Positions 1-63,132 of a stretch of 63,132 nucleotides of DNA are shown piece after piece. This stretch comes from a virus (lineage: Duplodnaviria; Caudoviricetes). How positions within the stretch are numbered: the first letter of the stretch is position 1; each line of letters opens with the position of its first letter. The notes under the pieces are model-generated. The model did no database searches and was not told the origin of the DNA. It saw only the letters and a program-made list of their open reading frames with translations. The DNA lies in the IMG/VR virus record IMGVR_UViG_3300005095_000109, positions 1 through 63,132 of that record; one strand, written 5' to 3'. The translations under genes and the position numbers were made by a program.

Positions 1-91
1 CGCTCCTATATAACCATCTACCCACGCAGAACAAACACTATACAACTTGGCTATCACACCATACCACATAGCTCTCCTACAACCATCACAT
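1..91. repeat. Terminal direct repeat (copy 1), most likely circular assembly overlap
   Basis: 1-91 is identical to 63042-63132. Confidence 0.97.
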
Positions 92-561
92 AATCCACCA
101 TAATCAGACTCTACAAATAAACCACTAACCAACAAATCATCTACAAACCTAACCACATCACTAACAACACCACCACAATCACACGAACCTACACCAACAC
201 ACACACCAGAATTAATACAACCTCCCAACTCAACAACCCTACGCAAATTTACCCTCATCACACCACAACTCCATAAACACTCATACAAAACCTCCTTCCT
301 CAATAACCGCTCCAAACCTATAACCCTACCTACAAAACCACTCTGCCTCAAAACATCCCTCAACTCACTTAATCCTCCCAACATAACCCAGTTGTCTATA
401 CCACTGCCATCCTTCAACACACCAATAAACCTAACTCGCTCACTCACTAAACCACTCAAAATATCACCACCACTAACTAACTCAAAATCACCCAACCCAA
501 ATAACCCAGACCTGTAATCACCTCGCAATCCTTCCCAAATACTACTACTAACAACAAACAT
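1..561 (-). CDS. 5' part of a 240-aa hypothetical protein that spans the circular junction (ends at 62880)
   Basis: Hand translation from the ATG at 561 (MFVVSSSIWEGLRGDYRSG...) is open and in frame with the 62880..63110 ORF. A TAAGTTTG box (579-586) lies 17 nt upstream. Confidence 0.75.
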   Translation of the reverse strand, partial: MFVVSSSIWEGLRGDYRSGLFGLGDFELVSGGDILSGLVSERVRFIGVLKDGSGIDNWVMLGGLSELRDVLRQSGFVGRVIGLERLLRKEVLYECLWSCGVMRVNLRRVVELGGCINSGVCVGVGSCDCGGVVSDVVRFVDDLLVSGLFVESDYGGLCDGCRRAMWYGVIAKLYSVCSAWVDGYIGA

Positions 562-744
562 CTCACTACCATTTTACACAAACTTACAAAAATAATTAAA
601 AACACTCATTAAACTAAACACAATACACACCAGCCAGATGAATAAGAGATGTGCAAGCGAGCAGTTACGGCACATTTAAATTCCAAAAACACATTTGGCT
701 CCCCCGGGGCACTCTCCGCCACAGAAAAGCATTATGCTTTCCTG

Positions 745-778
745 AAAAAAAGACCCCCCACCCTTGCGGGCAGGGGGT
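745..778 (-). terminator. Intrinsic terminator after the 784..1074 gene
   Basis: Minus strand ACCCCCT-GCCC-GCAA-GGG-TGGGGGGT followed by C and T7. Confidence 0.7.
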
Positions 779-783
779 GCCCC

Positions 784-1074
784 TTACCGCGGCCACGGGT
801 GCTCCATGAGCACCCTGCCACGGATGGCCTCCACAATAGCGGAGGCCTTTTCGCCGCGGGGCGGGGCATACCCCGCGGCATACGCCGCCCTGCGGAGGGC
901 GGCATAAGCACTCCCGGCGCCGAAGCGCCGGGAAATCCGCCCACCCCGGTCTCCGACCAGGGTGAGCGTTATAACTCCGTCCGGGCCTTTCTCGGCCCGG
1001 ACGTCTTTGATTGCCTCTGCCCCGAAGGCCCAGCTATCGCTGGGCCCTGGGGCTCTTATTAGCTCGTCTATCAT
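784..1074 (-). CDS. Hypothetical early protein (96 aa, GC-rich)
   Basis: The shared motif lies 23 nt upstream and a terminator lies downstream. Confidence 0.7.
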   Translation of the reverse strand: MIDELIRAPGPSDSWAFGAEAIKDVRAEKGPDGVITLTLVGDRGGRISRRFGAGSAYAALRRAAYAAGYAPPRGEKASAIVEAIRGRVLMEHPWPR

Positions 1075-1093
1075 GGCTCTTTGATTTTACGTA

Positions 1094-1106
1094 TAGTAAC
1101 ATTTAA
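1094..1106 (-). promoter_or_regulatory. Early promoter-like motif variant TTAAATGTTACTA
   Basis: Aligns with the 3630-3642 copy over TTAAATGTT-NN-TATAC-N-TAAAATCA, with the same 23-nt distance to ATG. Confidence 0.65.
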
Positions 1107-1163
1107 TCTCTTTCTCCAGAGAGTACAGAGCAGCAGAGAGCAGTAAGACGGTCTGGCGGTGAG

Positions 1164-1234
1164 AAAAAAAAGAGAGAGCCACTTAGGCTCTGTGGCGGCC
1201 CGTGCCACCTCTACCACAGAGCCCTATGGCTCTC
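1164..1234 (-). terminator. Long terminator hairpin closing the putative ncRNA
   Basis: Stems 1174-1181/1227-1234 and 1186-1195/1214-1223, followed by U8 (A8 at 1164-1171 on +). Confidence 0.7.
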
Positions 1235-1515
1235 ATCCACTCCCGGCCTCCTGCTTACGTCAGTGCCCGGCAAGCCTGTGCGGCACGGCACCGGCGTTCC
1301 CTTTCGGGACCTTACGCCGGCTGCCTGGGACACAGGCAATCCCTCTTGTCCCGGACACTTCGGGGGTCGGCTGATTATAGCGGGGCCCACCCAGCGGATA
1401 ACCCCCTGGCACTTGCCGACCACACAGTGGCTACTTCGCGCAGGCTGTCCCCCAGGCGGACCCTCCACCTGCGCTTTTCACCACTGTGCTCCCCGCTCAC
1501 CAGAGAGCAAAATCA
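1164..1515 (-). ncRNA. Putative large structured non-coding RNA (~350 nt) of unrecognised family
   Basis: Has its own promoter motif (1520-1532), at least 8 nested helices, a GAAA tetraloop, a possible pseudoknot, and a terminal hairpin plus U8. No credible ORF. Confidence 0.7.
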
Positions 1516-2788: not shown

Positions 2789-2865
2789 TGGTGGGCCCGG
2801 CAGGGCTTGAACCTGCGACCTGCGGATTATGAGTCCGCCGCTCTGACCTGCTGAGCTACGGGCCC
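2789..2865 (-). tRNA. tRNA with CAT anticodon, probably tRNA-Ile2 (lysidine type); elongator Met not excluded
   Basis: GGGCCCG acceptor stem, TAGCTCAG D-arm start, GCGGA-CTCATAA-TCCGC anticodon arm, GGTTCAAG T-loop and encoded CCA. C4:G69/C5:G68 pairs match Ile2 tRNAs. Confidence 0.93.
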
Positions 2866-8759: not shown

Positions 8760-9047
8760 ATGATGCAACCAACCTTTTTTAGGCTAACGCCAGAGCAATT
8801 CAAGATGCACTTTGGCAGTGCGAAGTGGGAATTCAAGAGGTTTTACATAGAGAATGATGTTGCTGAGTTTGAGTTCCGTGATAGCATAGGCTTATACACA
8901 CTTTTAGCCAGACCAACTCATACTGATATAATAGAACGGATGATGAAATCTGATGATTTAATTGATGGATTTGAAATAATTGAGATTAGAGAGACTGACA
9001 AGCAAGGTAACGTCATTAAGGTGCTTGAAATAGGTGATGATGCGTGA
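8760..9047 (+). CDS. Hypothetical protein (95 aa)
   Basis: First ORF of the plus-strand operon. Confidence 0.8.
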   Translation: MMQPTFFRLTPEQFKMHFGSAKWEFKRFYIENDVAEFEFRDSIGLYTLLARPTHTDIIERMMKSDDLIDGFEIIEIRETDKQGNVIKVLEIGDDA

Positions 9048-10188
9048 GTTGTTAAGGTGGCAGAAGGAAATCATCTTGTCTATTGAGAACAGAATGCGAA
9101 CAGATGATATGTTTGTAGTGAACGTAGCGACTGGCGGTGGCAAGACGTGGATAGGTGGCTACTTGGCTTTACGCCATAAGCCATCAATAGTTGTGTGCCC
9201 TACTGTCGTATTAGCCCGCCAGTGGGATGCTTGGTTCAGGGAAAGAGGCATAGAGCCCGGGTTTATAGGTGACGGATGTATGGATGTAAACAGAGATGGT
9301 GTTAACATAGGTGTTATAAACAGCATAGTCAATAACATATATATAATGCCACAATTTGCTATGGGCATATACGACGAGGCACATAACTACGGCGGGACAT
9401 ATCAACGTGCGTTCAACATATCACGGACAAAAGTGTTACTAACTGCTACGCCGACGGAATGGATGAAAGGATACAAACAGATTGCAAACGTAACGCTCAA
9501 CAAACTGATAGATAACAAGATAGTTGACGACTACATTGCTACACTAATAGGCGTTGACTTAACACTATCTGAACAGAAAGAATACAATTATTACGACAGG
9601 CTTCTTCGTCAATACCTTGACGACAGCGGGATAGCAACACTACAAACAGCATTTAAGTTAATCGGTCTATCAAGCGGTAAGATGTCGCATGTGCTAAGGG
9701 ATATAGCGAAAACATATCAAAATATGATACGCATATCTGCCATGTCGGAAGGGAAAGATGAATTAATAACAGAGTTCGCAAAAGACAGCGATGAAAACGT
9801 AATAGTGTTTTGTAACTACATAGAACAGGCAAGGCGAATACACGAACGGTTACTAAGGCTGGGAATAGATAGCATATTAATAACTGGTAAAGACAGCAAG
9901 AAGCAACGCAGAGAAAAACTGAGGCGAGCCAGCAATACCAAAGCCCTTGTTACAACTAAAATACTTGACGAGGGATGGACACCAGAAGTTCCATTCAGCA
10001 TAGGGATAATAGCCAGTGCAACAGGACAGAAGAGGCAACTTATACAGCGGATAGGCAGGACGATAAGACACTACGGCAACGGGCATAGATACATAATAGA
10101 CGTTGTAGCACGTGGGACTGTTGACGAGAGGCTTGCGAGGAGACGTTGGCATTCGTTAGGGAACCGTTTGAGAACATTCATTGTTTAA
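9034..10188 (+). CDS. Superfamily 2 DEAH helicase (XPB/UvsW-like)
   Basis: ATGGGKT, DEAH, TAT, ILDEGW and QRIGR. Confidence 0.92.
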   Translation: MMMRELLRWQKEIILSIENRMRTDDMFVVNVATGGGKTWIGGYLALRHKPSIVVCPTVVLARQWDAWFRERGIEPGFIGDGCMDVNRDGVNIGVINSIVNNIYIMPQFAMGIYDEAHNYGGTYQRAFNISRTKVLLTATPTEWMKGYKQIANVTLNKLIDNKIVDDYIATLIGVDLTLSEQKEYNYYDRLLRQYLDDSGIATLQTAFKLIGLSSGKMSHVLRDIAKTYQNMIRISAMSEGKDELITEFAKDSDENVIVFCNYIEQARRIHERLLRLGIDSILITGKDSKKQRREKLRRASNTKALVTTKILDEGWTPEVPFSIGIIASATGQKRQLIQRIGRTIRHYGNGHRYIIDVVARGTVDERLARRRWHSLGNRLRTFIV

Positions 10189-10196
10189 TGTAAAAA

Positions 10197-10745
10197 ATGG
10201 TTGCTATGGGGATAAACATTGACAAGACACTCGTTGAGTTATTTGAAATAGTTTCAAAAAGTGCAACCGATAGTATGCTATACGCACTTATCAATATGCA
10301 CAAGAAACTGAATGAAATAAAAGAACAATTTGACATAGGCACTATTGAAGACTACATAAACATAAAGAACAAGAGCGACAAACGAGAATATGAAAACGTA
10401 AACATAAAAGTCAAATCAACAGAAGGCGGGACAGAAGCATCAATAGTGCTAACCTCAGACGAAACATACACAGGCTTATTAACAGAAGTGAGAGACATAA
10501 ACGAAGAAAAGGCACTGTTTGAAATAAGATTTTCATCAATAACCCCAGACGACATAACAGAGATAGCAAGGTTCGTCGTTCAGGCAAGCCAAATAGCAGA
10601 CATTGACATACAAGAGAAAATGATTTACAACAAACAGGAACTGCTTAACAGCGTTGAGTTAGTTAACGCACTGATGAACGCAACAGGGACGCTAATCCGT
10701 ATCTACTACCATCTTGACGAAGACCACGAACTAATGTGGCCTTAA
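10197..10745 (+). CDS. Hypothetical protein (182 aa)
   Basis: Co-oriented ORF. Confidence 0.8.
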   Translation: MVAMGINIDKTLVELFEIVSKSATDSMLYALINMHKKLNEIKEQFDIGTIEDYINIKNKSDKREYENVNIKVKSTEGGTEASIVLTSDETYTGLLTEVRDINEEKALFEIRFSSITPDDITEIARFVVQASQIADIDIQEKMIYNKQELLNSVELVNALMNATGTLIRIYYHLDEDHELMWP

Positions 10746-11167
10746 AAACAAGAAAGATGAAAGAATGGGAGCAACTGCGTGTCAGGTCAGTAATAGGCAT
10801 AATAGACATACAGGACTACGGGATAACATTGATAGTTGAGAAGTCAAAACAATTCCCCCAAGACCAAACATTCAGCACATACTCAATAAGCATACACAAG
10901 CAAGATAAGTTAAGCGGTGTGGCACAGGAACATTACGAATGGCTAAGCGAGATAATTGATGGGGAAGCACTGGACAAGAAAGAAATGATAGACGTAATCT
11001 TCTCATTCATAGACGAGACGGCACACTACGCAGAAGTGAGACCATACGTCAAGGCTATAACTAATTACAGCAGGGCAACAGGTAATTACATAACAATCCT
11101 GACAGGTAACAGGAAATTGCTTATGAAACTGTTGCTTGAACTGGAAAACCACAGAGGAACGCATTAA
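10736..11167 (+). CDS. Hypothetical protein (143 aa)
   Basis: Co-oriented ORF. Confidence 0.8.
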   Translation: MALKTRKMKEWEQLRVRSVIGIIDIQDYGITLIVEKSKQFPQDQTFSTYSISIHKQDKLSGVAQEHYEWLSEIIDGEALDKKEMIDVIFSFIDETAHYAEVRPYVKAITNYSRATGNYITILTGNRKLLMKLLLELENHRGTH

Positions 11168-11179
11168 AATCACTGGGAG

Positions 11180-12214
11180 ATGAGAATAAGTAGCACTGAA
11201 TTACCAATAATAGTCGGGCTTAGCAAGTTTGCTACGCCCCTTGACCTCTGGCTGGTAAAGAAAGGATTAAAGGAACGACAGCCCGATAACGAGTATATGC
11301 GGTTAGGCAGACGGCTTGAATACGGTATATTCGCAGAAGCAAAAGAAGAAATACAGAAAAAGAAAATCCTACCTATTGAACCAACTGATAAGATAGTCTA
11401 TGCCCCGGGAATTCTATTCACGAAAGATATATTTTCTTGCCATATAGATGCGGCAGTGGTAAAGCCAAACGATGAAATCAAATATCTAATAGAGATTAAA
11501 AGCACCTCAATGCCTATACAGGCATTTGAGAAATATGCTCTTGCCCAATATGAATGCCAAGTAATGCAACAGATATACATAACAGGAGCCCAACAAGCCG
11601 TTATAGTAGTGGCACCCGACGGAGGGAAAGGAGAACTGAAATACTACTACGTATTCTTTGATGATGAGAAATGGTCTAAATGGGAAGCTGAAGCCCGCAA
11701 GTTCTACGAATCACTAAAAGAAGACAATCCGCCTGAATGGATAATAGAAAGGTCAAAGGAACAGAACAAGGAACTTTTTGAGGCGAATAATGTGTTTAGT
11801 ATAATGGAAGTTGATGACGACGTTGCCGCTTGGATAGTGTCGGCAGCCGTTAAACTGGAAGAACTGAAAGCACAGAAGAAGGAATTAGACGCACAGATTA
11901 AGGCAATAGAAGGCGTCCTTTCAAATGCCATAAAAGGCAACGGAGAAATCAAATGGAACGACGAAGTGATTGTGAAGGCTACAACATACGAAAGCGAAAC
12001 ATTTGACAAAGAGAAACTCAAAAAAGAACATCCAGAGATTTACGAGAAATACGTCGGGAAAACAACTAAAAGCAGATTAACAGTAGCAAAAGGCAAAAAA
12101 CTACAAAGGCTGGCAAGCACCTTCCAAAGCCTACCAGAAATCAAAAACGCAGAATCACTAACTTCACTAATAGCAAAACAAGACGAAGATGGCAGAGAAA
12201 CTACCAATCAATGA
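11180..12214 (+). CDS. YqaJ-family (lambda-exonuclease-like) recombination exonuclease
   Basis: ISSTE, TPLDLWLVKKG, GRRLE, HID, EIK and YECQVMQQ. Adjacent to RecT. Confidence 0.9.
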   Translation: MRISSTELPIIVGLSKFATPLDLWLVKKGLKERQPDNEYMRLGRRLEYGIFAEAKEEIQKKKILPIEPTDKIVYAPGILFTKDIFSCHIDAAVVKPNDEIKYLIEIKSTSMPIQAFEKYALAQYECQVMQQIYITGAQQAVIVVAPDGGKGELKYYYVFFDDEKWSKWEAEARKFYESLKEDNPPEWIIERSKEQNKELFEANNVFSIMEVDDDVAAWIVSAAVKLEELKAQKKELDAQIKAIEGVLSNAIKGNGEIKWNDEVIVKATTYESETFDKEKLKKEHPEIYEKYVGKTTKSRLTVAKGKKLQRLASTFQSLPEIKNAESLTSLIAKQDEDGRETTNQ

Positions 12215-12971: not shown

Positions 12972-13389
12972 AGTCCCTATCCCAACAGTCCTGCGGATAA
13001 TAAACAAGAAAATTCCGCTTTTTAAGAAGTTTGACTTAGGGGTGCGGGCTTGCGACTTTAGATTCGGCGAAGCCTGCGCCCCACCCCCCTTCATCAAAAT
13101 GGAACTGGACGGCGAGGAGTTCAACATATGTGAACGATGCCGGGAGGTTCTAATTGAGATGAGAAACATAATAGTAACAGCAATTAGATGCGAAGTGTGT
13201 GGGTTTAAGCCGACGGAAAAAGACGCCCTATACATAGCAATGGCAAACGACTGGGACCCCGGATACATAAACGACGAAGGATGGTCATTACCAATTGAAC
13301 GCAAATCAGGCAACTTCAAATTAGTGGCTTGCTCAAGATGTTTTAGAGAAATAACTAATTTCAAAGGGTATAGAGATGCTAATAACTAA
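12964..13389 (+). CDS. Zinc-finger-like protein
   Basis: CERC, CEVC and CSRC pairs. The ATG at 12964 is preferred as start. Confidence 0.7.
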   Translation: MSKVPIPTVLRIINKKIPLFKKFDLGVRACDFRFGEACAPPPFIKMELDGEEFNICERCREVLIEMRNIIVTAIRCEVCGFKPTEKDALYIAMANDWDPGYINDEGWSLPIERKSGNFKLVACSRCFREITNFKGYRDANN

Positions 13390-26869: not shown

Positions 26870-26883
26870 CCATTACATAACTA

Positions 26884-27600: not shown

Positions 27601-27639
27601 TTCGCTTCATTTTGCTACAAAGTTATGTAAGCGAATTGA

Positions 27640-27762: not shown

Positions 27763-27773
27763 CGCCTTTATAT

Positions 27774-51700: not shown

Positions 51701-53937
51701 TTGTCAGATTTAAATTTGCTAAAATTGTTATTTATCTTTGTTAGCCTAATGAAGTATGGCATTAATGGTAGTAATTTATCATCTATCTTATCTAAATAAT
51801 TTAATACTTGCACATCTATATGTTTTGTTATATCTATTGCCTTATTTGCTATATCGTTATCTATTACATTAAGGTCTTTTAATGTATTTAATGTATTAGA
51901 AATTACATCTGAGAATCTAATATATGCTCTTGGGTTATGAGAGAACGCTGTAACTGGCAACGCTGAATATATTAAGTCAACCACTGCTTCTACATTATTT
52001 CTTTTTAAAATTTCCTTATTATCTGCGTCCTCTAACTCTTTTTCAAATTTGCTAAACAGTGTTGTTGGCACTAATTCAACTTCACCGCCACGTCTGACTA
52101 CCTTAAATATGTTTTGTAGTGCATTTCCAATCTTTGGATATTTAGTAATCAGTTCAATTATCTCTTGTGTCTTTCGTTCGCCTTTTGGTTGTATTTGTTG
52201 TTCACGTCTTTGTTGTTGTTGTTGCACTTGTTGAGTTTGTTGTTGTATCTCTTGTTGTGTTTGTTTATGCGATACTTGTTGTTGTGCTGATTGCTGGGGA
52301 GGTTGTATTTGTTGTTGAGGCGTGGCTTGTTGAGTTTGTTTAAATATATCTTTTACGCTTTGTATTTGTTGTTGAGTTTGTTTTATTCTTTGTGATGCCA
52401 ACGATTTGGTTCCATTCATTATTCCGCCCATGCTTGATAGGAACGCCCCACCTATTGCTCCAGCCATGAAGGCGTAGTATAATTGCTGTCTGTCTTCTGG
52501 GCTATTTATCATTTCTGTTATTGCATCTGTCCAAGATATATCTGTTGCTTTTGGATTTCGCAACATTAGGTTTACTCTATGGTATGCTATTAGTGGCAGT
52601 GCTTCTTGTATTACTTCCTCAACGCCCTCTGTTATAGCACCTTCTGTTACTATTTTTGTTGCTTTAACACCTATTTCAAGAGGTGTTTTTGCTAATGTTT
52701 TAGCTACTTGCCCAGTGGCTCGTTTTCTAATATTGTCAAGTATTATCTTGCTTGCTGTTTTCCTAATAGTTGCTTTTCCTGCTTGCACTGCTGTGCCGAG
52801 GAATAGCCTTCCAGGTGCGAATAGTGCTGTTGATAATGCTTCAACGCCAGCTGCTCCTAAGCCAGTTAATGTTGAGTATCTATCTGCTATTCTATATATT
52901 TCCTCGTCAGATATATTAATGAGTCCTTTCTGTTTGTCTTCAAGTAGTCTATCTGATATTTCCTTATATGCGTTCCATTTCTCTGCGAAGTATGTAGGTG
53001 CTGCTGAGCCGACTAATGCGCCTGCCAACGCCCCAAGAGGTCCCCCGACTTTGCCGCCTGCTAAGCCGCCAGCCATTGCCCCGACTATTGGTATTATTGC
53101 AGAGCCTGTTGCTTCGCCTGCCAACGCCGCTATTGTCTGCAGGTCCCAGTATCCGTCTCTTTCAACATATCCGTGTGCGAGCAGGTCTGTATCAACTGAT
53201 TCTCTGTATATCTCATCAAGCCATTCATCAAGTCCTGTTTCGTAGTCAAATTGCAGTTCTGTTCCTTTGATTGCACTTGAGGTCATTTGTAGCATTGAGC
53301 CTTTGAAATTGTTCCAGAATAGGTATAGTGCGCTGGCGTCCCTGATCTTTCGTTCTCTAAGGAGTTCTTCAAGGTTGGCGTCATATAGGTAGTCTGCGTC
53401 GTCGTTTGCTTCTGGGTAGTATCCTTTGAAGGCGTATATTGTTTTAGATGTTAGATAAACGGCGCGTTCCAGTTCTGTGGGGTCAAGGGCTTTTAGTTTC
53501 TTATTGCCGTAGCCTTTCATTTGTTGTATGATAGATTGGAACGTTATAGGCATAAGTGTTTTAAGTGCTTCTGGGTCTATGTTGGCGAGTGCTTGTTTAT
53601 AGAACTCTCTTAGCGTTTGGTCTTTTAGTTCGCCTGTTTGTGGGTCGAACATGTGTGTTCGTGTGATAATTTCTATTTCTTTTTTTGTTGGATATTTTGC
53701 TTCGTGTGGTATATATTCCTGTGCTATATAGTTTAGTAATCCCTCATCAATTGCTACTATTCCTGTTTGTGATAGTTCAATTGCTTTATCTAAGGTATTT
53801 GCTTTGATGGCGTCGAGGAATATCTGTGGGTTATTAGGTATAGCAAGTTCTTGTGTGTCATATGGCAATACTATTTGTGGCTGTTGTGTATTCTGCTTTG
53901 TATTTTGCTGATTATTCTGTTTGCTCTGTGGCTGCAT
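39754..53937 (-). CDS. Giant virion cargo protein / DPBB RNA polymerase with SLOG and zincin domains (4,727 aa)
   Basis: IRVPTQ...DADYDGD (46471-46485), ISGGQTGAD...NVAGPRES (about 50660-51195), HEFAH...EERLA (43015-43029), and N-terminal GA-rich helices. Confidence 0.85.
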   Translation of the reverse strand: MQPQSKQNNQQNTKQNTQQPQIVLPYDTQELAIPNNPQIFLDAIKANTLDKAIELSQTGIVAIDEGLLNYIAQEYIPHEAKYPTKKEIEIITRTHMFDPQTGELKDQTLREFYKQALANIDPEALKTLMPITFQSIIQQMKGYGNKKLKALDPTELERAVYLTSKTIYAFKGYYPEANDDADYLYDANLEELLRERKIRDASALYLFWNNFKGSMLQMTSSAIKGTELQFDYETGLDEWLDEIYRESVDTDLLAHGYVERDGYWDLQTIAALAGEATGSAIIPIVGAMAGGLAGGKVGGPLGALAGALVGSAAPTYFAEKWNAYKEISDRLLEDKQKGLINISDEEIYRIADRYSTLTGLGAAGVEALSTALFAPGRLFLGTAVQAGKATIRKTASKIILDNIRKRATGQVAKTLAKTPLEIGVKATKIVTEGAITEGVEEVIQEALPLIAYHRVNLMLRNPKATDISWTDAITEMINSPEDRQQLYYAFMAGAIGGAFLSSMGGIMNGTKSLASQRIKQTQQQIQSVKDIFKQTQQATPQQQIQPPQQSAQQQVSHKQTQQEIQQQTQQVQQQQQRREQQIQPKGERKTQEIIELITKYPKIGNALQNIFKVVRRGGEVELVPTTLFSKFEKELEDADNKEILKRNNVEAVVDLIYSALPVTAFSHNPRAYIRFSDVISNTLNTLKDLNVIDNDIANKAIDITKHIDVQVLNYLDKIDDKLLPLMPYFIRLTKINNNFSKFKSDNKALAEQMPNYGLMLPLSQKKKQDIFAKLPQEAKQFLEDVSLIIRDQIWNEQKAISKQAKQKLRNRLEELFASAGEQTLDAKRYALRLLDKYIIPDDVITYISQTDDTKIEQYLNGITPQQQQAQTQQPKQTQQQQKQEKEQETEQPEQPEQGEIQQPQQQPQQTKKIRLKKIISGGQTGADFGALLAAKELRLETGGIAPKGYRNELLDIGRQKEGMEHVGFLKQFGLEEDRTRDYRSRTKRNIDNADVVIIFYDPNNLTPGTKQTIRLAQDGLFGEPLQNPPEKPYRPYLLVDINQDIETNAQKIKEFIVEHDPEVINVAGPRESKVPGITQKTKEILVKAIKELIKPQNTQQKQQTQQATPQQQPAQPQQQQKKQREAEQKQSHPAAPQERKDEKKQTSQPTQNVRQKKEERLIIKHTEEVKADDLREVKSPILDEVDKLDETFAPNKERLIKALIESKLPSGRIRLKQAINKFLEGKSDEELKQIINTLNGKTPFVFKGDINENPKEALREALLDGGVYIVYSSKYKPPFDETTDIGKVFKELADKYRNENATVVNVKSSEDAEKEKISISIAQTVIIAALESATLKSKASKTISTKRLLDIFNKVLEGSNLSDRQKNIAKRVFTAKVLRISKTDEDSQTEIDEIELSDLETAMQESLEVFSRYIRDKDTSVYRTIIAFAIPPEYIVVNKDGTVEIATHHKENVITALNKVARESTKENFIDNLREYAYSLDIPSDARHSLQIILQALEGLPNKYRDRAISLFYNKASTSILLPVRTTNAHIEPSRRDTEGLVNIPAQIKSPSGAILNAVFASMLPRAIHLLKGKTFNSETTLVTEINKAIKGAWQSSELYTAARGLLTALQNLKKAIDNKEYLNNEYIQQQIDYELEKALHEFSVAFGVPMPPAGMVNPVTGNKELYDSIIDMLAMLAIAFEIPASRNYILGKGRQINLKNIDIEQIVTNTLNKKAGYITNVGFKTNLKFTGEEKILLYNDKIGDPLVFNIYKDDKKKQVREIRSVSYYYKKIIGELIKEGYYNKTTFNVGSEKGNALSFVNNVIRIFSNAKYFIQSIAKFNSAQDYINKLTELYKNTLIYRLIEQEGGDMVSLFTSVYIGEKATQFATAPYKNKLIAQLKMHINGIIESAGKYFYFISPPHGDSREVYAVKMPTYQDAKVFDKYSDLDFIAESVGLDNKDIKGRLAKYRDELVKEYESLLKEADIEYIEVKAPDDVTQSQISFLKNKYDIQYDKKANVFKIGKQSFKKIATDIVMASFVYDVLTSGDLVFTDMLSHGKKQKITKGAKTPTIRRLAPGKKLLIIPFKDPKIKLRIGNEVAETELLDGFCFYNDAMYDLINDTASIDDTSPFIKPMLYGLAPYKKKDGRYALAPLYGKMGGIKIEGGRSYVESRLQAILDELKRRGHIDDNTAVVFIASSAMKGHLTKGGGPIQVFDIFDIEAIETEEVNGQQVAKRAKLKVKKAVKDIATDIAEYIKEEEPYVDSSTFGIVINTNKPVDEQSSSLFPLMAYTTIKSVAQDPERVKELWNAYKELIEATLNNWDNSDIGFLRTMKEAIVGAIQGADAAWKTNVSESLSKMFKLLQDKIDKAIKSKAEEDIDEAKAMTEAVMHNIEYASIIIPTLAKMFHKRAARAELPGAHLYEVPDMGSPSTGELLIDGKAIVSPMVAKRGEKIMTIRVPTQAPNIAFSKVIGHTGEYYSNKARRRLHANIIIRGVRDRVRADADYDGDALFVFPEDGGMRKIIMDYIVSKGIKAIAPFIYEDLRGMKEITGQTFFKIIASKTHEGDYVSLVNDMIDYIMNNIDNVKTEKDINELITQYLKLKGLKIQKEIKNVNTPEWGWSMQSLKIAKALSKLVKTAEQVYNSVDEAIRDYKLDPSGMSNLADVVELAMLAKKYKITLPNDLQEVVRFTPETVKKIIDDEGYYKEIYDRLLSALSKSGKADLDKELSLENRSARLKISARTRSANDAISTLVVLRKLISVVDKMSYTGYTTQETEEEEIIVRRRKTINIQELLQKEGVVKSLDIFVQAALDDNNNNFAISRMLINSASLNYIAGAILHGNEISEVISEIINMYDFVEKYAVKNGYDYFSMPAHLYAQAVEAFYGDMSLEYRLEKMDYLAAGQEAISYVAPILGIYRSIPSSIEEMIRVRIALDEHKAYPGVEKTEFAIQSEYADFAGYIYSKIYEPLSTVFLPFREYSIFKGYETEIRPALELYSAYLVDKAMYGEAPSERLWMKMNIDLYNAKLNGRMPFHIARLLSAYSINGEHFIGPSQVKNIIGWLEKKRIKSPFKKNGVDLTFTNVSPHEWLAIKKLINASPDLSSIYLKPIAYVMTAKNGVFAASPVMSLLPEQELMQITESIAGISKEDKLQALRESLATNILRKSRPEGVVHGMVKYDLEKERFILFDIAGSKYMLINPLHPYNTRENIILLAGLNEFNIRVRKHNAYEYRKLTVEKPTQQELSKVLTNLPPDLADALSAIPPQTPNNYVILKIKYDKVVEDRQSKQKLITTRYHELAYMPGLAEPADNSLVKITPYFDGIPKQEVIVSGVDFSSMLITHLQSLNVNREVADKIKDLINSLQTVDVAVRINEIGGKAQAKIYIPPGINISVTEVNLNGLDIDKVINDLSARTINVLSRIAVSNPNLLESIKSAISLSQKLQASNTIDDNLILNTKFDKIGIVNDKDVFGFYIPTSKRASIAEALANALSSGRKTTIKLLKRASETQDIETINNTLKEAVAKKDMEQIKKILKDVLGAQGDIDKITESIINLAKKGVVPRLVKLSEESIEVVSINEAEIKSQIEDADYMIERESMVRIIENEELYKAIVKDLMAKYPFVEIRIYDEKLGKRLGYMQKRELSYLVAWSLVDGRITTAPHEFAHVYIDMFREDPLVKRLIDKYGEERLAEMLAVSYVRRLQDERKINELKGVLKVIYKFWTRLKWLIKSSIGYERLAKLFYEADLRRLTPTGEARQILEKQGIKQPQLQTQPAQQEIKQQAQHQPDNLFEQHFDEINPGIVADTEGVEQHYTEIKSADDIITAADEILDYLSFGFFISNEVDSGIMSLDIPARKQAMLQIFRQLDDIIGDDKEHQISKAILGLKGFGNFLDNSLSGLTNLQGAAYDDANPMSVFNLLFGDNPDGRLSDETIQQILNGTLEIEYDGKSPVASLKLQNGNEIVLRDLALSDVIVAVRALALINRVLSSKNTFQAADGRAITSTYNDYLDNEMVTQISTAASDPLVVKMFKTFKLSSFLQPHAFFNLIAGGTDNALYKGLYLAFEHGDMMASKLTMRVQKLITPTLKNKKLADGSQHIRSSEYVTVSRKDVPKMKVKFTNVKKVWNKGQEEIEEFEDVHELTPAEIITVYLYLKDNKAREDIKEHGIIYGSDRDDIKKRSIWFGDESAFKSFEKAINSIVNAHFKEEAQAFEQAFRILKNETNSIVKKAFGYENKADGLFVPRVSGIGTPLSVQIKGVANIFDNPYIDMHKRKNEAVTITDAYTVLTLSQRLASTVYGYTFPVMNYKKIAKTVTSYGDRYGSEMYRFLVQKIKSFVNRYYAPQLNEAKWQRLLDRQMKIEVAFIFFMNIFSAIKQAAGLVTLGAATGDLKSIGRAITLVGRIIKGAPVEQARAIKSKPESIMRELNDPRIREIIEYDTTGLIAARLISTPLLSYYTVEDLFGTKTSVSIEAGKLLTKMFGKKVAQKIIDATSMESTMSMIAYADREMIIETWNRYAEKAQKMGLKKGTREWAKYVSENTYNAVRSTQPMYTTTFRPEIYYSWIRLFTMFTTPSWPIFSNFVLGLRDYLKYRNTKRLSYYGLAIILTSLFLAAIDFLKELLTGEKRKTKEKEQERIAKTAAASFINNSLGLVAYPASYYLPATVNKILDLPTYGIRLPIGFNFMQAIANSTYRTIDFAKGESTPMQLTRDYLKAFSLTVTPIVPNQALSLMRKYEQANKRKRTKVVGSVSYRIR

Positions 53938-53992: not shown

Positions 53993-54301
53993 ATGGCTGT
54001 AAGTGAGTTGAGTGGTTATATTTGGAGGATGGCTGTTAAGAGCGTTAAATATGTTTTTCTTACCTATGAAAGTAATGGTTTATTTGGGTTCAGGGGCGAT
54101 AGCAAGGACTTTACTGTTTTTATTGTTGACAGTAATTATGACAAGTTTGATGATGATATGGTTGAGTTAAGCAGTATAGACTTTAATGACTTTGCGTGTG
54201 TTGTTATTTGTGATAGGTCTGCCGACGCTGTTTACTTACATGGCGATGTTCCTGAAGGTAGTATTGGCGATGTGATTAGGCAGTGGGTTGAGTATGCTTA
54301 G
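53993..54301 (+). CDS. Hypothetical acidic protein (102 aa), antisense to the cargo operon
   Basis: Exactly fills the gap and converges with 54298..56250. Confidence 0.65.
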   Translation: MAVSELSGYIWRMAVKSVKYVFLTYESNGLFGFRGDSKDFTVFIVDSNYDKFDDDMVELSSIDFNDFACVVICDRSADAVYLHGDVPEGSIGDVIRQWVEYA

Positions 54302-56250
54302 GGTCCTTGTTGGTATGCTTGTTCATATATATTTGGCACTCCTCTTTGCGGGCTTTCTGCTTCTTGCTGCATAGGTGCTGTCATTGCCCCCGCTATTTGT
54401 CTTGTTTGTGCTGTTTGTTGCATTTGAGTGGCGAGCGATACAGCGTCTAAGACTATAGGTGTAAGTGTTTTTGCTATTATCTCATATTCGTAATCATATC
54501 CTTCATCAGTTGGTATCTTATACTCTCTTAATTCAAAGTTGACAAGCGGCAATCTTTTATTCCCTATATCAATATACATGTTTTTAACAGTTAGCCTGTT
54601 TAATTCCGCTACTATACTTGAAATAGTCTGTCTATCAATTCCTATTTCTGCTGATTTCTGATATAGTTCTGAGAACTTATCTTGTATTTCCTGCACGTAT
54701 TCTTTCGGCAAGATGTTATTAAGTTTAGCGAAGTCAGATATATTCCCGTTATTTATGTCTATTGGCACGTGGGCTCGTGCTAATGCAAGGGTATAGTCTA
54801 TTCTGCCGTCTGCGTCTATGTCAGGCATTATTGTGTATTCTGTTAGTTCAACGTCGTATGCTTCTATGTCTGTTAATGTTGGTCTGTCTTCTGGATTTGT
54901 AACCATTTCAATCTTTGAGAAATCAAATTTATTGCCAATCATATCTCTAAGGCTGGCGGGGACAGGCACTATAACTTGCGTTTCTGTTTTTCGCAATCCT
55001 ATTGATATGTCATACCAAGGGGCTATATCTGGTATTGTATAGATGTTGATGGTTTCTGCTTCTTTCTTTTTAAGTTTGTCTTCTGTTCCAGTTGCTGATA
55101 TTTGTCTATCAATTTGTCGTTTTGGCAATGATTTTCTAAATTCTCTTGTTATTTGCAGTGCGTTGTTTTTGGGGATTTGGATTACATTGTATGGTGCTAA
55201 GTATACCGTAGTGTTCGGTTCCAATTGCTCTGTATCATCTACCTTGCCTATGTTTAGTTGTCCTACTGTTTGTGTAAATGGTATGATTGGTTGGGTTCTT
55301 TGTGTTCCGCCTCTTGCTGCTGAGAAGAGTCTTTGTTTCATGTTTGCGAGGACCATTGGGTCGTAGTCCCATCTATGGACTGTTGGTATGTTGCCCAGTA
55401 TTTGTGATGCTCTTTGTATTGCTTCTCTATCTATACGTCCTTTTTGCCTGAGGTATTCAGCCCAGTTGTTCAGTTGTATAGTTACGTATTGTGCTTGTTT
55501 ATCCGACAGGCGTTCCCAGTCTATTGATTGCTTGAGGACTTCAATGGCTACCCATGGCGGGACTGTTTCCAAGTGTCCGAGCAGTTGGTCTGCATATACT
55601 GTTCTGTCCCATCTGTTTTTGTTTGGTGTTGGTATAGTGTGGAATTTGAACATGTCGTGCAGGGCTGATGGGTTAAAGGACCCCATGAACTTGAGTTCTG
55701 GCAGGGCGCCTACGAAGTATAGGTCAACTGCTTCTTCTGCACTGATGTATCTGACTGTGTTTGTTGTTTTGTCGTATAGTGGGACTGGTGCTACCCAGTG
55801 TCCTTTTGACCATGCTTCCACCATTTGCGTATATGCTTTTTTGTTTTGCATTGCTTTAGCGAGCAGTGGCGACAGCATGAGTTGTTTTTTGTAGTTTGTG
55901 AGGGCTTGTTGACCTTCTGCTGAGAGCCATGATGAGACATCTCCGCCGTATTTTTCAAGTGATACTTGAAGTTCTTGTCTTAGTTGTTGTTCGTATTCTT
56001 TTAGTCTTGCTATATCTGGGCTGAGCAGTTCAAAGTTTTGTAACTTGTCAATGTGTTCTTGTATGAATGATTCAAAGGCTTCCCTTGCAAGCCTTTCTTC
56101 CTCTGCGTCTTTTGCGGCGAATAGGAATAGGCGTTTTGCTGTTTCAAGGCGTTGTGTGTCTGCTTCGTATATGATAGAGAATGGTGCTATTACAGCGAGG
56201 GCTCCTTCTGTTGTTTGTAGTGGTTGTCTATGTGGCGTAGCACCGTTCAT
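54298..56250 (-). CDS. Putative internal virion (cargo) protein (650 aa)
   Basis: Helical N-terminus, upstream of the RNAP gene as in crAss cargo blocks. Confidence 0.65.
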   Translation of the reverse strand: MNGATPHRQPLQTTEGALAVIAPFSIIYEADTQRLETAKRLFLFAAKDAEEERLAREAFESFIQEHIDKLQNFELLSPDIARLKEYEQQLRQELQVSLEKYGGDVSSWLSAEGQQALTNYKKQLMLSPLLAKAMQNKKAYTQMVEAWSKGHWVAPVPLYDKTTNTVRYISAEEAVDLYFVGALPELKFMGSFNPSALHDMFKFHTIPTPNKNRWDRTVYADQLLGHLETVPPWVAIEVLKQSIDWERLSDKQAQYVTIQLNNWAEYLRQKGRIDREAIQRASQILGNIPTVHRWDYDPMVLANMKQRLFSAARGGTQRTQPIIPFTQTVGQLNIGKVDDTEQLEPNTTVYLAPYNVIQIPKNNALQITREFRKSLPKRQIDRQISATGTEDKLKKKEAETINIYTIPDIAPWYDISIGLRKTETQVIVPVPASLRDMIGNKFDFSKIEMVTNPEDRPTLTDIEAYDVELTEYTIMPDIDADGRIDYTLALARAHVPIDINNGNISDFAKLNNILPKEYVQEIQDKFSELYQKSAEIGIDRQTISSIVAELNRLTVKNMYIDIGNKRLPLVNFELREYKIPTDEGYDYEYEIIAKTLTPIVLDAVSLATQMQQTAQTRQIAGAMTAPMQQEAESPQRGVPNIYEQAYQQGP

Positions 56251-61567: not shown

Positions 61568-61599
61568 AACAACTGCATTTTATTCACACACACACACCT

Positions 61600-61702
61600 A
61601 AACAAAATTAAATGCCGGACGGGGAAACAAATCAGTTAACCACCCGCCCGGCACTCAGTTGGGGGCACGCTGCATAGACTCCAAAACTACACAGCATGCC
61701 CC
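61600..61702 (-). terminator. Tandem hairpins between the HU-like and primase genes; the second is terminator-like
   Basis: Stems 61662-61702 and 61613-61653 pair with G-U only on the minus strand and are followed by TTTAATTTTGTTT. Confidence 0.6.
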
Positions 61703-61710
61703 TCATTCAA

Positions 61711-62199
61711 TTAACCCCTTCCATTCAACAAATCACGTAAACGCTTGCTCTGCTTAAAACGCATACGCCTAACCCTGCCAGTAACAACTCCTATAGGCGT
61801 ACGCCTCGGAGTTATGCTAAACTCCTTAACATCAAACCTGCCAAAACCCTTTATCGTTACTACAAAACCCTCATCAGCAGAACGCTTCAATAACTCAAAA
61901 TAATCACTAACTATATCACGCACAATAGCATACGGATAACCACTCAGCAAACTTAACAATAAACTCAAATCACCATGACTCAACCTGCCCCCAACACCCA
62001 TAGACATCAAACGCTCAGCCTCAACCCTGTCAATCCCACCCCTAAACCTAAACCTGTCCCTATACGACCTCATTAAACCCCTTAACTCACTACGACTACC
62101 CTCTCGCCATAAATCAATTAACTGTGTCCTGTCAAGACCTGAAAAATCCTTCACTACCCTGTCAACCCCAGAATGCCTCAAATAATCACTCTTAGTCAT
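61711..62199 (-). CDS. HU/IHF-family DNA-binding protein with N-terminal extension
   Basis: VTIKGFGRF..RRTP..RFKQSKRLRDLLN. Confidence 0.8.
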   Translation of the reverse strand: MTKSDYLRHSGVDRVVKDFSGLDRTQLIDLWREGSRSELRGLMRSYRDRFRFRGGIDRVEAERLMSMGVGGRLSHGDLSLLLSLLSGYPYAIVRDIVSDYFELLKRSADEGFVVTIKGFGRFDVKEFSITPRRTPIGVVTGRVRRMRFKQSKRLRDLLNGRG

Positions 62200-62210
62200 C
62201 TCTCCCTTAT

Positions 62211-62251
62211 TTTACATTTTTTGCAACGTATAATGAACACTAAAAAGTTCC
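62211..62251 (-). promoter_or_regulatory. ECF-sigma-like promoter GGAAC-N17-ACGT-N7-AATGTAAA
   Basis: Matches 8710-8749 and lies 11 nt before the HU-like ATG. Confidence 0.5.
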
Positions 62252-62289
62252 ACATTAAATAATGAACATTTTCGCCCCGTCCCTAAAGT

Positions 62290-62690
62290 GTCCCACCTGT
62301 CCCACCTAACGTCCCAAACCTTGGGACGGACCCCGCACCTGTAACTGGTTGAAAACCAGACAGTTATAAATCAAAATTTGGTCTTGTCCCATCAGAAAAA
62401 ATTATCCTGGGACGCACTTAACTGGCTGTGAGTGAGTATGTTATCACAAGTTAATGTGTGAATGTCCCAGCTGAATGCTATTTATTTATATATATATACT
62501 ACCCCCCTCTCTATTTTTTACCTTTTCACTTTTTATAAAAAAGATGGGACAGATATAGTAAAAGTATAGGAAACTCACTGAAACACACTTAGTTATAGCG
62601 TCCCACCCATACATGGGACACACAACATACACAAAAACAAAAAATAACTGAAACACACACAGTTATGCCACGTCCCATACCAAATGGGAC
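62290..62690. repeat. GTCCCA iteron-like cluster, candidate replication origin
   Basis: 7 forward and 5 reverse copies, four AACT...GTTA elements and a central AT-rich tract. Non-coding. Confidence 0.7.
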
Positions 62691-62879
62691 AAAACTCAAA
62701 ACTAAGGACACACACATAAGTTTACTTAACTCAAACACAAAATACACACACAAACCCAACTGTACAACAATATAACAACTATTTACTTGACAAAGTGTAA
62801 AAACTAAACAAAAACTCTAACACAACTAAACAAAAACACAACCAGATAAACACACATACACAACACAAATCACTCAATA

Positions 62880-63132
62880 CTACCCATACATCCCAAACAA
62901 ACCATTAAACTCACCTACATACCACTCAGGTAACCACAACAACTCACCACTATACACAACACTACCCAAATCTCTCTCCACAAAACTTACACCTATATCA
63001 ACACCATCTAAACTACCAACAACCACCAACTTAGACTTCAACGCTCCTATATAACCATCTACCCACGCAGAACAAACACTATACAACTTGGCTATCACAC
63101 CATACCACATAGCTCTCCTACAACCATCACAT
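62880..63132 (-). CDS. 3' part of the junction-spanning 240-aa protein
   Basis: In frame with 1..561 through the terminal overlap. Confidence 0.75.
   Translation of the reverse strand, partial: CDGCRRAMWYGVIAKLYSVCSAWVDGYIGALKSKLVVVGSLDGVDIGVSFVERDLGSVVYSGELLWLPEWYVGEFNGLFGMYG
63042..63132. repeat. Terminal direct repeat (copy 2)
   Basis: Identical to 1-91. Confidence 0.97.

Follow-up and report, generated by a model that had tools for sequence, protein, structure and literature searches.

In crAss-like phages, a DnaG-family primase of Bacteroidota origin is regarded as the one universally conserved replication gene (review PMC10136315), and an IHF/HU gene within the structural block as a genomic signature (PMC7886860). 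A DNA polymerase of their own, which an earlier sequence-only reading of the genome described here had taken as a general trait of these phages, has published exceptions: Yutin et al. (2021, PMC7886860) name the epsilon group along with some crAss-like phages from the environment, and excerpts of Bartlau et al. (PMC8776804) give only "a DNA replication protein" for the Pachyviridae phage Gundel; the same excerpts report PolA for Cellulophaga phage Calle (Pervagoviridae, with phi38:1 and phi40:1). Polymerase-less crAss-like phages are therefore already published, and the present analysis overturns nothing.

Here, we analyzed the entire IMG/VR contig IMGVR_UViG_3300005095_000109 (63,132 nt, no N; hereafter the window), whose features are collected in Table 1. 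Overall, we consider it fairly probable that the window is a complete podophage genome from a polymerase-less lineage, in which replication would be started by a primase-polymerase (PrimPol), elongated by a host polymerase and carried on in a recombination-dependent mode.

Table 1. Features of the window, with positions, strand and supporting matches
Feature	Position	Strand	Basis
Whole phage contig	1..63132	.	91-nt end overlap; IMG/VR end class
tRNA-Met (CAT)	2789..2865	-	ARAGORN; Rfam 74.5 bits
Recombination/repair block	9034..14189	+	SF2 helicase, YqaJ, RecT, RuvC-like; small unknown ORFs between
SF2 helicase	9034..10188	+	phrog_16 4.6e-40; Pfam
YqaJ-type exonuclease	11180..12214	+	phrog_434 9e-47; Pfam
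RecT	12189..12971	+	phrog_148 1.8e-40; Pfam
RuvC-like resolvase	13656..14189	+	phrog_1770 1e-15; Pfam
P0066, 330-aa ORF	14200..15192	+	no family match
P0065, 530-aa ORFan	17596..19188	+	no homologs
Endolysin (GH108 + PG_binding_3)	19169..19654	-	Pfam 3.2e-22 + 1.2e-10
Muzzle protein, 1,648 aa	20352..25298	-	Pfam crAss_MUZ 3.4e-62
Tail ring block	25306..28421	-	Ring 1, 62-aa ORF, Ring 2, 238-aa unknown, Ring 3/4-like
Ring 1	25306..26019	-	CrAss_Ring_1 1.2e-33
Ring 2	26195..26869	-	CrAss_Ring_2 2.3e-24
Ring 3/4-like	27774..28421	-	CrAss_Ring_3_4 3.3e-5, under Pfam cut-off
crAss-type major capsid protein (MCP), 461 aa	29372..30757	-	Pfam Crass_capsid 2.8e-58, 198 bits
Portal protein, 714 aa	31850..33994	-	phrog_6547 4e-73; P22_portal 2.3e-8
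Terminase large subunit (TerL), 612 aa	33982..35820	-	phrog_6681 6.7e-70
Giant 4,727-aa protein, putative virion RNA polymerase polyprotein	39754..53937	-	DxDxD motif, hhalign
DADYDGD codons, beta-prime-type metal-binding motif (aa 2483-2489)	46471..46491	-	motif read
cpYpsA SLOG domain (aa 918-1087 of giant protein)	50677..51186	-	Pfam PF12694 6.1e-28; PDB 3imk 1.5e-9
650-aa protein adjoining giant gene	54298..56250	-	25-29% identity to G001-G005
AEP primase-polymerase (PrimPol) + SF3 helicase fusion, 810 aa	59135..61567	-	Pfam, PHROGs
HU/IHF-like DNA-binding protein, weak match	61711..62199	-	Bac_DNA_binding 7.1e-4, under cut-off; IHF models 1.5e-3

Genome form, virion block and giant protein

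Positions 1–91 are identical to positions 63,042–63,132, leaving a unit of 63,041 nt, and the IMG/VR end class is direct terminal repeats. The unit length proposed in the sequence-only reading therefore stands, whereas the circular genome proposed with it is one of three forms (circular, circularly permuted or ending in a genuine 91-nt terminal repeat) that, as far as the sequence goes, fit the overlap alike. Coding is nearly without gaps over the whole contig (code 11), and modules for packaging, head, tail, lysis, transcription, replication and recombination were found using Pfam and PHROGs. The crAss-type structural block is present, and the MCP, portal, TerL, ring (tail stabilisation/tubular) and muzzle genes previously recognized from the sequence were all matched by these libraries, the Ring 3/4-like gene under the cut-off.

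The giant gene and the adjoining 650-aa gene lie upstream of TerL here and after the muzzle in the relative G001, and are the only genes outside the virion block common to all five of the long relatives described below (G001–G005). The giant protein contains a single DxDxD motif, RADADYDGDALFV (aa 2483–2489), and we take DADYDGD to correspond to NADFDGD, the catalytic signature found in multisubunit RNA polymerases. Since the motif is kept in the giant ORFs of all five relatives, a similar context (DxDxD-K/A-L/V-F) recurs in two Crassvirales giant ORFs, and hhalign pairs the protein with the cr50_1/Azobacteroides giant-ORF region (93.2% probability, E 2.9e-7, 113 columns), its identity as an RNA polymerase, already suggested by the sequence-only reading, is supported at the level of motif (of the two-barrel type) and profile. 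The fold is not part of this support, the AF2 model of a 1,196-residue stretch being unusable (pLDDT 36.0). Other than the cpYpsA SLOG domain, the giant protein has no family match in Pfam, and long stretches of it carry no annotation. The 650-aa protein has no family match in Pfam, PHROGs or NCBIfam and none in the PDB, and its conservation in the relatives is limited to the N-terminal ~240 aa.

Lineage and placement

A related capsid protein is encoded by 408 IMG/VR contigs. Among the 80 of these that were listed, the longest measures 71,213 nt and at least five are 65–71 kb long; for the 52 capsid clusters at 42–57% identity, contigs reach up to 68,028 nt. The five longest relatives (G001–G005, 65–71 kb; CheckV 58, 100, 100, 100 and 100) are all "linear" contigs, share 36–40% (TerL) and 49–51% (MCP) identity with the window, and are without a match to PF00476 or PF00136 (0/5). 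Their replication modules differ: DnaB, AAA_24 and PDDEXK in G003, DnaA-C HTH, PDDEXK and RusA in G001, with no polymerase in either. As judged from these predicted gene contents, lineage genomes are ~63–71 kb in size and encode no DNA polymerase, and the replication arm is swapped freely within the lineage (PrimPol-SF3, DnaB, DnaA-like HTH), the predicted arms never including a polymerase, which argues that the polymerase is outside the conserved core of crAss-like phages.

Identity to described Crassvirales is just 25–28% for TerL and MCP. In the TerL tree, ten Crassvirales and Fpv20 form a branch supported at 100/100, outside of which the window clade (94/90) is located, the Pachyviridae group being supported at 100/100; in the portal tree, the window clade (97) is sister to Crassvirales plus Fpv20 and the Pachyviridae group is split off at 100. 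The divergent lineage proposed earlier thus emerges as a separate clade in both trees, next to the Crassvirales families that were sampled and distinct from Pachyviridae. Crassvirales were sampled as Suoliviridae, Steigviridae and Intestiviridae, and the trees leave out Crevaviridae, Darmviridae, epsilon, zeta, marine clades C1–C4 and Pervagoviridae. Membership in Crassvirales as sampled, judged by the order criterion in PMC11502894 (2024), was rejected on the position outside the TerL branch and as sister in the portal tree; the clade may nevertheless be placed inside the wider order comprising Crevaviridae, Darmviridae, epsilon, zeta and marine C1–C4. Pachyviridae membership (phi13:2, Gundel_1) was likewise rejected on its separation in both trees and its different capsid type. 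As for the epsilon group, polymerase absence is the only published trait that agrees, while the 63-kb size and the DxDxD protein do not. Cellulophaga records account for eight TerL matches, four Pachyviridae phages being among the matches listed, and none was tallied among the MCP matches. The genome had also been called reduced or streamlined; this direction of evolution found no support. The next groups out are also 60–79 kb long and polymerase-less.

Replication genes and the DNA polymerase

Using Pfam (E<=0.01) and PHROGs (E<=0.001), no PolA, PolB, PolC/DnaE, DnaG, ligase, RNR or thymidylate synthase was found among 61 ORFs, and the same polymerase, primase, ligase, RNR and thymidylate synthase families were absent from 55 ORFs compared to NCBIfam. 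At E<=1, PF00476, PF00136 and PF07733 had no match in six-frame scans of the contig, and the last of these recovered no DnaE-derived piece. Profiles specific for crAss PolA and PolB reached a best E of 0.021 on the contig and, over 2,211 six-frame ORFs, recovered the control's own PolB only. The Pfam PolB scan is insensitive, as the control crAssphage PolB scored just 25.4 bits and the cr50_1 PolB was missed; moreover, polymerases as divergent as divPolA, very divergent phage PolA forms described in excerpts of PMC11348598 as needing structural modelling, would escape the profiles used here. With regard to recruitment of the host polymerase, a loose clamp-motif search returned three matches, none in replication proteins. 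On these scans, the sequence-only reading was right that no DNA polymerase, DnaG, ligase, RNR or thymidylate synthase is detectable.

Its replication set (Prim-Pol-SF3, YqaJ/RecT, RuvC-like and SF2 helicase) was recovered gene by gene with Pfam and PHROGs. No DnaG/Toprim family is present among the 61 ORFs, and an AEP PrimPol is found instead. This protein matches Prim-Pol (7.5e-12, aa 14–160), DUF5906 (1.1e-14, aa 473–578) and phrog_1156 (1.4e-30), and residues D66xD68, H112, D134 and a GKT Walker A were read by eye according to what we take to be the AEP DxD/H/D and SF3 Walker A definitions. The catalytic motifs are intact and, by these motifs, the protein looks active; it has one weak homolog only in 5.8 billion clusters. 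The weak HU/IHF-like match sits beside the PrimPol gene, outside the structural block. With respect to the unassigned ORFs of the replication arm, P0066 and P0065, both singled out in the sequence-only reading for a search for polymerase folds, P0066 has no family in Pfam, PHROGs or NCBIfam, no usable Atlas match (pLDDT 0.36 for the Atlas's own model) and nothing below E 0.65 among PDB sequences. P0065 has no homologs in 5.8 billion clusters, HMMER run exhaustively against 1.84 billion representatives found none either, and its AF2 model is unusable (pLDDT 36.2); its Atlas leads are AEP-primase clusters (including NrS1-1_pol-like_HBD, Prim-Pol, AEP-TOTE and PriCT_1), all sub-threshold, with TM <=0.33 and scores of 0.78–0.80, a range reached by shuffled proteins a third of the time. 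The ORFans of the window are not conserved in G001–G005.

That the phage relies on the host replisome or on PrimPol, as put forward from the sequence, is a reasonable inference. In the replication mode that we favor, the giant protein would presumably be packed in the virion and transcribe early genes, while the PrimPol-SF3 helicase would melt an origin and then lay primers to be extended by the host replicative polymerase. Later, replication would be sustained in a recombination-dependent mode by the exonuclease with RecT, the SF2 helicase and the RuvC-like resolvase, yielding concatemers for the terminase.

A different reading is that PrimPol-SF3 is itself the replicative polymerase, starting de novo and extending the whole 63 kb, as is reportedly proposed for the enzyme of the deep-sea vent phage NrS-1. 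Its AEP residues are intact, a helicase is fused to it, no other polymerase was found in the contig, and the sub-threshold leads of P0065, a possible helper, are AEP-related. However, those leads lie within the range of shuffled proteins, the protein matches none of the solved PrimPols in sequence, and relatives of the same lineage that are without PrimPol are also without a polymerase, so that the lineage as a whole must use host enzymes. AEP enzymes have low processivity, and in phages and satellites, primase-helicases built as AEP-SF3 fusions usually pass synthesis on to host Pol III. We find this reading unlikely, and rather improbable the claim that a 63-kb virus has the AEP PrimPol-helicase, possibly aided by P0065, as its only replicative DNA polymerase, a size that would be far above that of all genomes with a proposed AEP replicase.

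It is quite improbable, in our view, that a DNA polymerase is present but diverged beyond recognition, in P0065, P0066, the 650-aa protein, a 467-aa protein or the unannotated part of the giant protein. The missing homologs of P0065, the unusable models of P0065 and the giant-protein stretch, the PolB missed in the control and the existence of divergent PolA forms that need structural modelling (excerpts of PMC11348598) favor such a reading, but no polymerase motif or family appeared at any threshold tried, the ORFans are not kept in relatives while the polymerase lack is lineage-wide, and the 650-aa protein, kept only in part, sits with virion and transcription genes. More improbable still is that the contig represents only part of a ~100–130 kb genome, left incomplete or collapsed in assembly, whose missing half would carry the polymerase and nucleotide-metabolism genes. 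The CheckV field of 47 (47%) for the 63,132-nt contig, an overlap of just 91 nt that could be repeat-derived and the lengths of described Crassvirales (at least 88 kb, INPHARED) point in this direction; against it, independent lineage contigs end at 65–71 kb (80 of 408 listed), four of them rated 100%, contigs that carry clusters at >=42% capsid identity do not exceed 68 kb, the 63,041-to-1 junction is spanned by an ORF (open in 0 of 2,000 shuffles), all essential modules are present, and MW202828.1 of the neighbouring group is circular at 60,850 nt with the same layout and no polymerase match. Collapse was thus not borne out, 63 kb being the lineage's own size (capsid-relative contigs <=71.2 kb among the 80 listed), and the window probably represents all or nearly all of the genome of an uncultured podophage, from a large environmental lineage adjoining the sampled Crassvirales families.

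Comparison with known systems

Taken together, these results describe a crAss-type particle and a giant RNA polymerase gene, identified as above by motif and profile, in an environmental lineage that is widespread (at least 408 IMG/VR contigs) and whose genomes are two-thirds as large as those of gut crAssphages. The lineage is a further, well-delimited example of the polymerase switching and loss known from crAss-like phages, represents a candidate family beside Crassvirales that is useful for taxonomy, and provides a compact system in which to study how crAss-like phages take over the host replisome.

Like the window, the epsilon group is reported to lack a DNA polymerase, but, compared by description, its genomes are ~150 kb and reportedly without the DxDxD transcription block, whereas the window is 63 kb with the motif (PMC7886860). 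The Pachyviridae phages phi13:2 and Gundel_1, Maribacter phage Panino and MW202828.1 are crAss-related podophages of 61–79 kb; our scans found no PolA/PolB match in these four or in Fpv20, nor in Azobacteroides phage (Pfam and crAss-specific profiles). In this group, three of four records match the muzzle family weakly, and none matches the Crass_capsid model, which does match the MCP of the window. MW202828.1 (GenBank) resembles the window in layout (giant ORF, 645-aa ORF, muzzle, capsid, portal, TerL, VirE-type primase-helicase, SF2 helicase and exonuclease), although its giant ORF, unlike that of the window, is without the DxDxDGD motif.

The capsid, portal, terminase, ring and muzzle proteins are homologous to those of Suoliviridae, Steigviridae and Intestiviridae (cr50_1, crAss001, IAS virus, Carjivirus communis) and of Fipvunavirus Fpv20, with which the window also has in common the giant DxDxD-K/A-L/V-F protein (93% profile match). 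At 63 kb, compared to 88–104 kb for Crassvirales, the window is without their DnaG primase, PolA/PolB, dUTPase, Thy1 and RNR and has an AEP PrimPol-SF3 in their place. This fusion, which has no sequence match to the solved structures, is by Pfam similar in architecture to the P4 alpha-type, NrS-1 and pRN1 ORF904 initiators, which unite an AEP primase-polymerase and an SF3 helicase in one protein.

Gene content and the search for a DNA polymerase

Scans of 61 ORFs with PHROGs and Pfam, and of 55 with NCBIfam, confirmed the gene inventory of the sequence-only reading together with the positions of its genes (see table). At the Rfam gathering score nothing beyond tRNA was recovered from the window, positions 1-4000 giving sub-threshold matches only, and PDB sequence searches with the giant protein, PrimPol (the primase-polymerase/SF3 helicase fusion), two further ORFs (P0065 and P0066), the 650-aa protein encoded next to the giant gene and a 467-aa protein returned a SLOG match only.

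Main features of the window
Feature	Position	Strand	Match or content
P0066, 330 aa	14200-15192	+	
P0065, 530 aa	17596-19188	+	
Muzzle	20352-25298	-	crAss-type virion block; crAss_MUZ, 3.4e-62
Ring proteins	25306-28421	-	crAss-type virion block
Capsid	29372-30757	-	crAss-type virion block; Crass_capsid, 2.8e-58
Portal	31850-33994	-	crAss-type virion block
TerL	33982-35820	-	crAss-type virion block
Giant gene, 4,727 aa	39754-53937	-	Putative RNA polymerase
650-aa protein gene	54298-56250	-	
Replication initiator (PrimPol), 810 aa	59135-61567	-	Prim-Pol + DUF5906 (SF3)
Endolysin, GH108			Lysis gene
Recombination arm		+	SF2 helicase, YqaJ-type exonuclease, RecT, RuvC-like resolvase

None of the ORFs scanned matched a polymerase family, the "DNA polymerase/primase" labels in the window coming only from PHROGs whose match is to PrimPol through its AEP domain, and six-frame scans with the PolA, PolB and DnaE families gave zero matches at E<=1. 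The sensitivity of the Pfam PolA/PolB scan was tested on five Crassvirales records. PolA was found in crAss001 and IAS virus (E-49 and E-53), crAssphage PolB reached 25.4 bits only, and cr50_1 and the Azobacteroides phage gave no match. Since the cr50_1 PolB missed in this way was found by phmmer with crAssphage PolB (6.4e-42), the Pfam PolB scan on its own is poor evidence of absence.

We also searched 2,211 stop-to-stop ORFs (at least 60 aa, six frames) from the window, its five longest IMG/VR relatives (G001-G005, 65-71 kb), the GenBank genome MW202828, cr50_1 and the Azobacteroides phage with crAss-specific PolB and PolA profiles, all filters being disabled; besides matches judged to be noise, only the control's own PolB was recovered. 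The claim that the window has no detectable DNA polymerase is thus upheld by the ORF, six-frame and crAss-specific profile scans. The PolB matches taken as noise comprised an 83-aa ORF of G001 (E 6.5e-4, 15 bits), a match in G002 (E 1.9e-3) and a 182-aa ORF of the window at 10197-10745 (E 0.021, 10 bits).

Genome ends, size and composition

The window is 63,132 nt long, contains zero N and is coding almost throughout under code 11; its first 91 nt are exactly identical to its last 91 nt, which leaves a 63,041-nt unit. IMG/VR classes the record as having direct terminal repeats and gives a CheckV completeness of 47. An IMG/VR search with the capsid as a single protein gave zero matches, and the capsid profile matched 408 contigs, of which, among the 80 listed, the longest measures 71,213 nt and five lie at 65-71 kb. 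The capsid has relatives in 63 other clusters; for 52 of these, at 42-57% identity, the longest contigs do not exceed 68,028 nt. The five 65-71-kb relatives, all "linear", were rated 58, 100, 100, 100 and 100% complete by CheckV. In addition, the junction of the window is crossed by a 240-codon ORF, which was interrupted in every one of 2,000 base shuffles, and MW202828.1 is circular (60,850 nt) with the same layout as the window. Because of these relatives' contig sizes and CheckV ratings, the junction ORF and the circular MW202828.1, it is unlikely that the window is a half-genome, and the CheckV value of 47% probably stems from poor references. CheckV rates this terminally redundant window at 47% versus 100% for linear relatives of 69-71 kb, and its completeness estimates for the lineage are unreliable.

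Three sequencing runs were compared with the window. Over positions 1-20000, 92 short contigs of run X1, from a relative at 90-96%, covered 28 of 30 bins, matches in X2 and X3 fell mostly at the tRNA, and no contig of the three runs extended past the window end. A small share of the window sequence was traced to one study, in which X1 is the only run that contains it.

The plus strand is nearly devoid of G over ~840 nt spanning the junction (62800-63041 and 1-600), with counts of 3-8 G per 200 nt and a minimum of 3.2% G over 600 nt. In six related genomes, every base makes up at least 7% of each 600-nt window. The minus-strand junction ORF (62880-63041 and 1-561) holds 22 C in 723 bases and is still open; Thr and His are absent from its predicted protein, and Pro, Gln and Ala are very scarce. 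The N-terminal half of the PrimPol gene and an HU-like gene are skewed in the same way, though less strongly. Overall, the coding strands (e.g. 4000-8000, 10000-16000 and 40000-60000) have a strong excess of A over T: the AT skew of the plus strand falls as low as -0.64 over minus-strand genes and rises as high as +0.32 over plus-strand genes. GC is 40% versus 30-36% in G001-G005.

Positions 650-3650 form a GC-rich island (GC 0.55-0.62 versus 0.39) with small minus-strand genes and a tRNA-Met. Related-strain contigs of X1 run over it at similarly low depth, and since they cover the island it is not an obvious chimera. The 8-mer TTAAATGT occurs in five copies on the minus strand, in this island only (679, 1106, 1532, 2067 and 3642); because an ORF starts 25-120 nt downstream of four of the five, the copies resemble promoters belonging to a single class of early genes. 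No ORF follows the copy at 1532. An X1 contig of the related strain joins 1185 to 1530, lacking the 344 nt in between (1186-1529), where Rfam gave nothing above threshold; this is a variable, GC-rich, possibly non-coding segment.

A 116-aa protein in the early region (2877-3227, minus strand) matches the CRISPR-associated family Cas_VVA1548/Csx16 (Pfam 1.5e-14) and is a candidate counter-defence gene. At 6220-8383 (minus strand) an Amidoligase_2 gene (5.7e-10) adjoins two GATase-like genes; G001 carries an amidoligase and a GGACT cyclotransferase, and MW202828.1 an annotated gamma-glutamyl cyclotransferase. Such genes seem to form an accessory module that recurs in these phages.

Transcription and replication

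The sole library match of the giant protein is a cpYpsA SLOG domain (aa 918-1087). Its one DxDxD lies within RADADYDGDALFV (aa 2483-2489), which we take to be the beta-prime NADFDGD site. All five long relatives have a corresponding S/A-D-A/S-D-H/Y/F-D-G-D motif in their giant ORFs, and in two classified Crassvirales the giant ORF contains "GSDFDIDKLFV" (cr50_1) or "GDDNDGDKLFF" (Azobacteroides phage). With 93.2% probability (E 2.9e-7, 113 columns), a profile built from the window and its relatives (the window clade) aligned with these two ORFs in a region 220-340 residues past the motif. Since the AF2 model of the 1,196-aa stretch around DxDxD (6-row alignment) was unusable (pLDDT 36.0), the case for an RNA polymerase is built on the motif, the profile match and the gene context, and not on a fold. 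By analogy with crAss-like relatives, the giant protein would be packed in the virion.

Read by eye, PrimPol carries the AEP catalytic residues D66xD68, H112 and D134, together with a Walker A motif (GKT) in the SF3 portion; its homolog search gave a single weak match. The most economical account of replication, and one that we moderately favour, is that PrimPol would open an origin and prime, that the host replicative polymerase would then elongate, and that the exonuclease/RecT pair, SF2 helicase and resolvase would drive recombination-dependent replication, yielding concatemers to be processed for the terminase. The strongest argument for the use of a host polymerase is comparative, as sister genomes with different initiators (DnaB, DnaA-like HTH) also have no detectable polymerase. 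Repeat searches near the PrimPol gene and the window ends gave no clear iterons, and a regex search for clamp-binding motifs found 3 loose matches, all outside replication proteins.

That PrimPol is itself the replicase is improbable. A hidden, novel DNA polymerase, which we regard as quite improbable, could be sought in P0065, in P0066, for which neither the ESM Atlas nor the PDB sequence search returned anything, or in the 650-aa protein, whose conservation in relatives is limited to the first ~240 residues and whose gene is placed among virion and transcription genes. Searches of 5.8 billion clusters and, exhaustively with HMMER, of 1.84 billion representatives returned P0065 alone, and its AF2 model, made with no alignment, was unusable (pLDDT 36.2). 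Its sub-threshold Atlas neighbours fall repeatedly in AEP-primase clusters (Prim-Pol, AEP-TOTE, PriCT_1, NrS1-1_pol-like_HBD, DUF5906), with scores of 0.78-0.80, a range that shuffled proteins reach one third of the time, and TM <=0.33; the likeness is a lead, not a result. Finally, a polymerase gene missed through incomplete assembly is very improbable in view of the relatives' sizes and CheckV ratings, the junction ORF and MW202828.1.

Relationship to Crassvirales and to polymerase-less phages

BLASTP matches in G001-G005 were obtained for 14 of the 63 window ORFs, namely those of the virion block, the gene of the 650-aa protein, a portion of the giant gene and the two GATase-like genes, the latter both matched in G001 alone. 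The replication arm is not common to them: G003 has DnaB, AAA_24, a PDDEXK nuclease, ArdC and a PRTRC-like ThiF/E2 set, and G001 a DnaA C-terminal HTH, PDDEXK, RusA, amidoligase and GGACT. No DNA polymerase was detected in either with Pfam or crAss-specific profiles. In G003 (6141-12466), the PRTRC-like set (PRTRC_E, Prok-E2_D, ThiF) and an ArdC-type anti-restriction/metallopeptidase gene adjoin the DnaB helicase.

The TerL tree, from a careful search on 22 rows and 684 columns, recovered three groups and did not fix the order in which they branch: ten Crassvirales with Fpv20 (100/100), the window clade (94/90), and Pachyviridae with Panino and MW202828 (100/100). The portal tree came from a quick search on 20 rows, with SH-aLRT support only and without the Azobacteroides phage and the Vibrio outgroup. 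In it, the window clade (97) was sister to Crassvirales and Fpv20 (90), both split from the Pachyviridae group by a branch of 100. The Crass_capsid model matched the window and Fpv20 and none of the four Pachyviridae-group records, to which the muzzle model matched weakly. Based on these trees and matches, the window clade is judged to be closer to Crassvirales than Pachyviridae is, yet outside the sampled families, a set without Crevaviridae, Darmviridae, epsilon, zeta, marine clades C1-C4 and Pervagoviridae. Of the sequence-only reading, which proposed a divergent, reduced lineage, the divergence and the lack of a polymerase are upheld, and "reduced" is not supported.

MW202828.1, whose GenBank label is no more specific than Caudoviricetes sp., falls with Pachyviridae in both trees and encodes a 3,860-aa ORF without the DxDxDGD motif, GroEL/GroES, ThyX and a VirE-type primase-helicase. 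Against 185,579 species genomes the capsid profile matched one 4.5-kb contig in an archaeal MAG, giving no host or prophage evidence.

A 63-71-kb lineage with a DxDxD protein and without a polymerase was not found in the literature searched; it may be listed in the supplements to Yutin 2021, Piedade 2024 or the Great Barrier Reef study. PolA and PolB were not found in phi13:2, Gundel_1, Panino, MW202828 and Fpv20, in scans to which the low PolB sensitivity applies. Pfam PolA/PolB scans of NC_055706.1 (Azobacteroides phage ProJPt-Bp1) and NC_031912.1 (Fpv20), both ~90-100 kb, gave no DNA polymerase, nor did the crAss-specific profiles, run of these two on NC_055706.1 only; both may be among the polymerase-less "few environmental phages" of Yutin 2021.

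The premise that crAss-like phages universally have their own DNA polymerase is wrong, as indicated by Yutin et al. 2021, Bartlau et al. and the present scans. Yutin et al. 2021 (PMC7886860) make an exception for the epsilon group and some environmental phages, and describe epsilon phages as ~150 kb in size, with few replication genes and no transcription block; for Gundel (Pachyviridae), Bartlau et al. (PMC8776804) name only "a DNA replication protein". Pachyviridae and Pervagoviridae (~73 kb) are related to Crassvirales (Evseev et al.), these sister families account for 93% of the marine contigs that geNomad assigns to Crassvirales (Great Barrier Reef study), and marine clades C1-C4 have typical gene content (Piedade et al. 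2024, PMC11502894).
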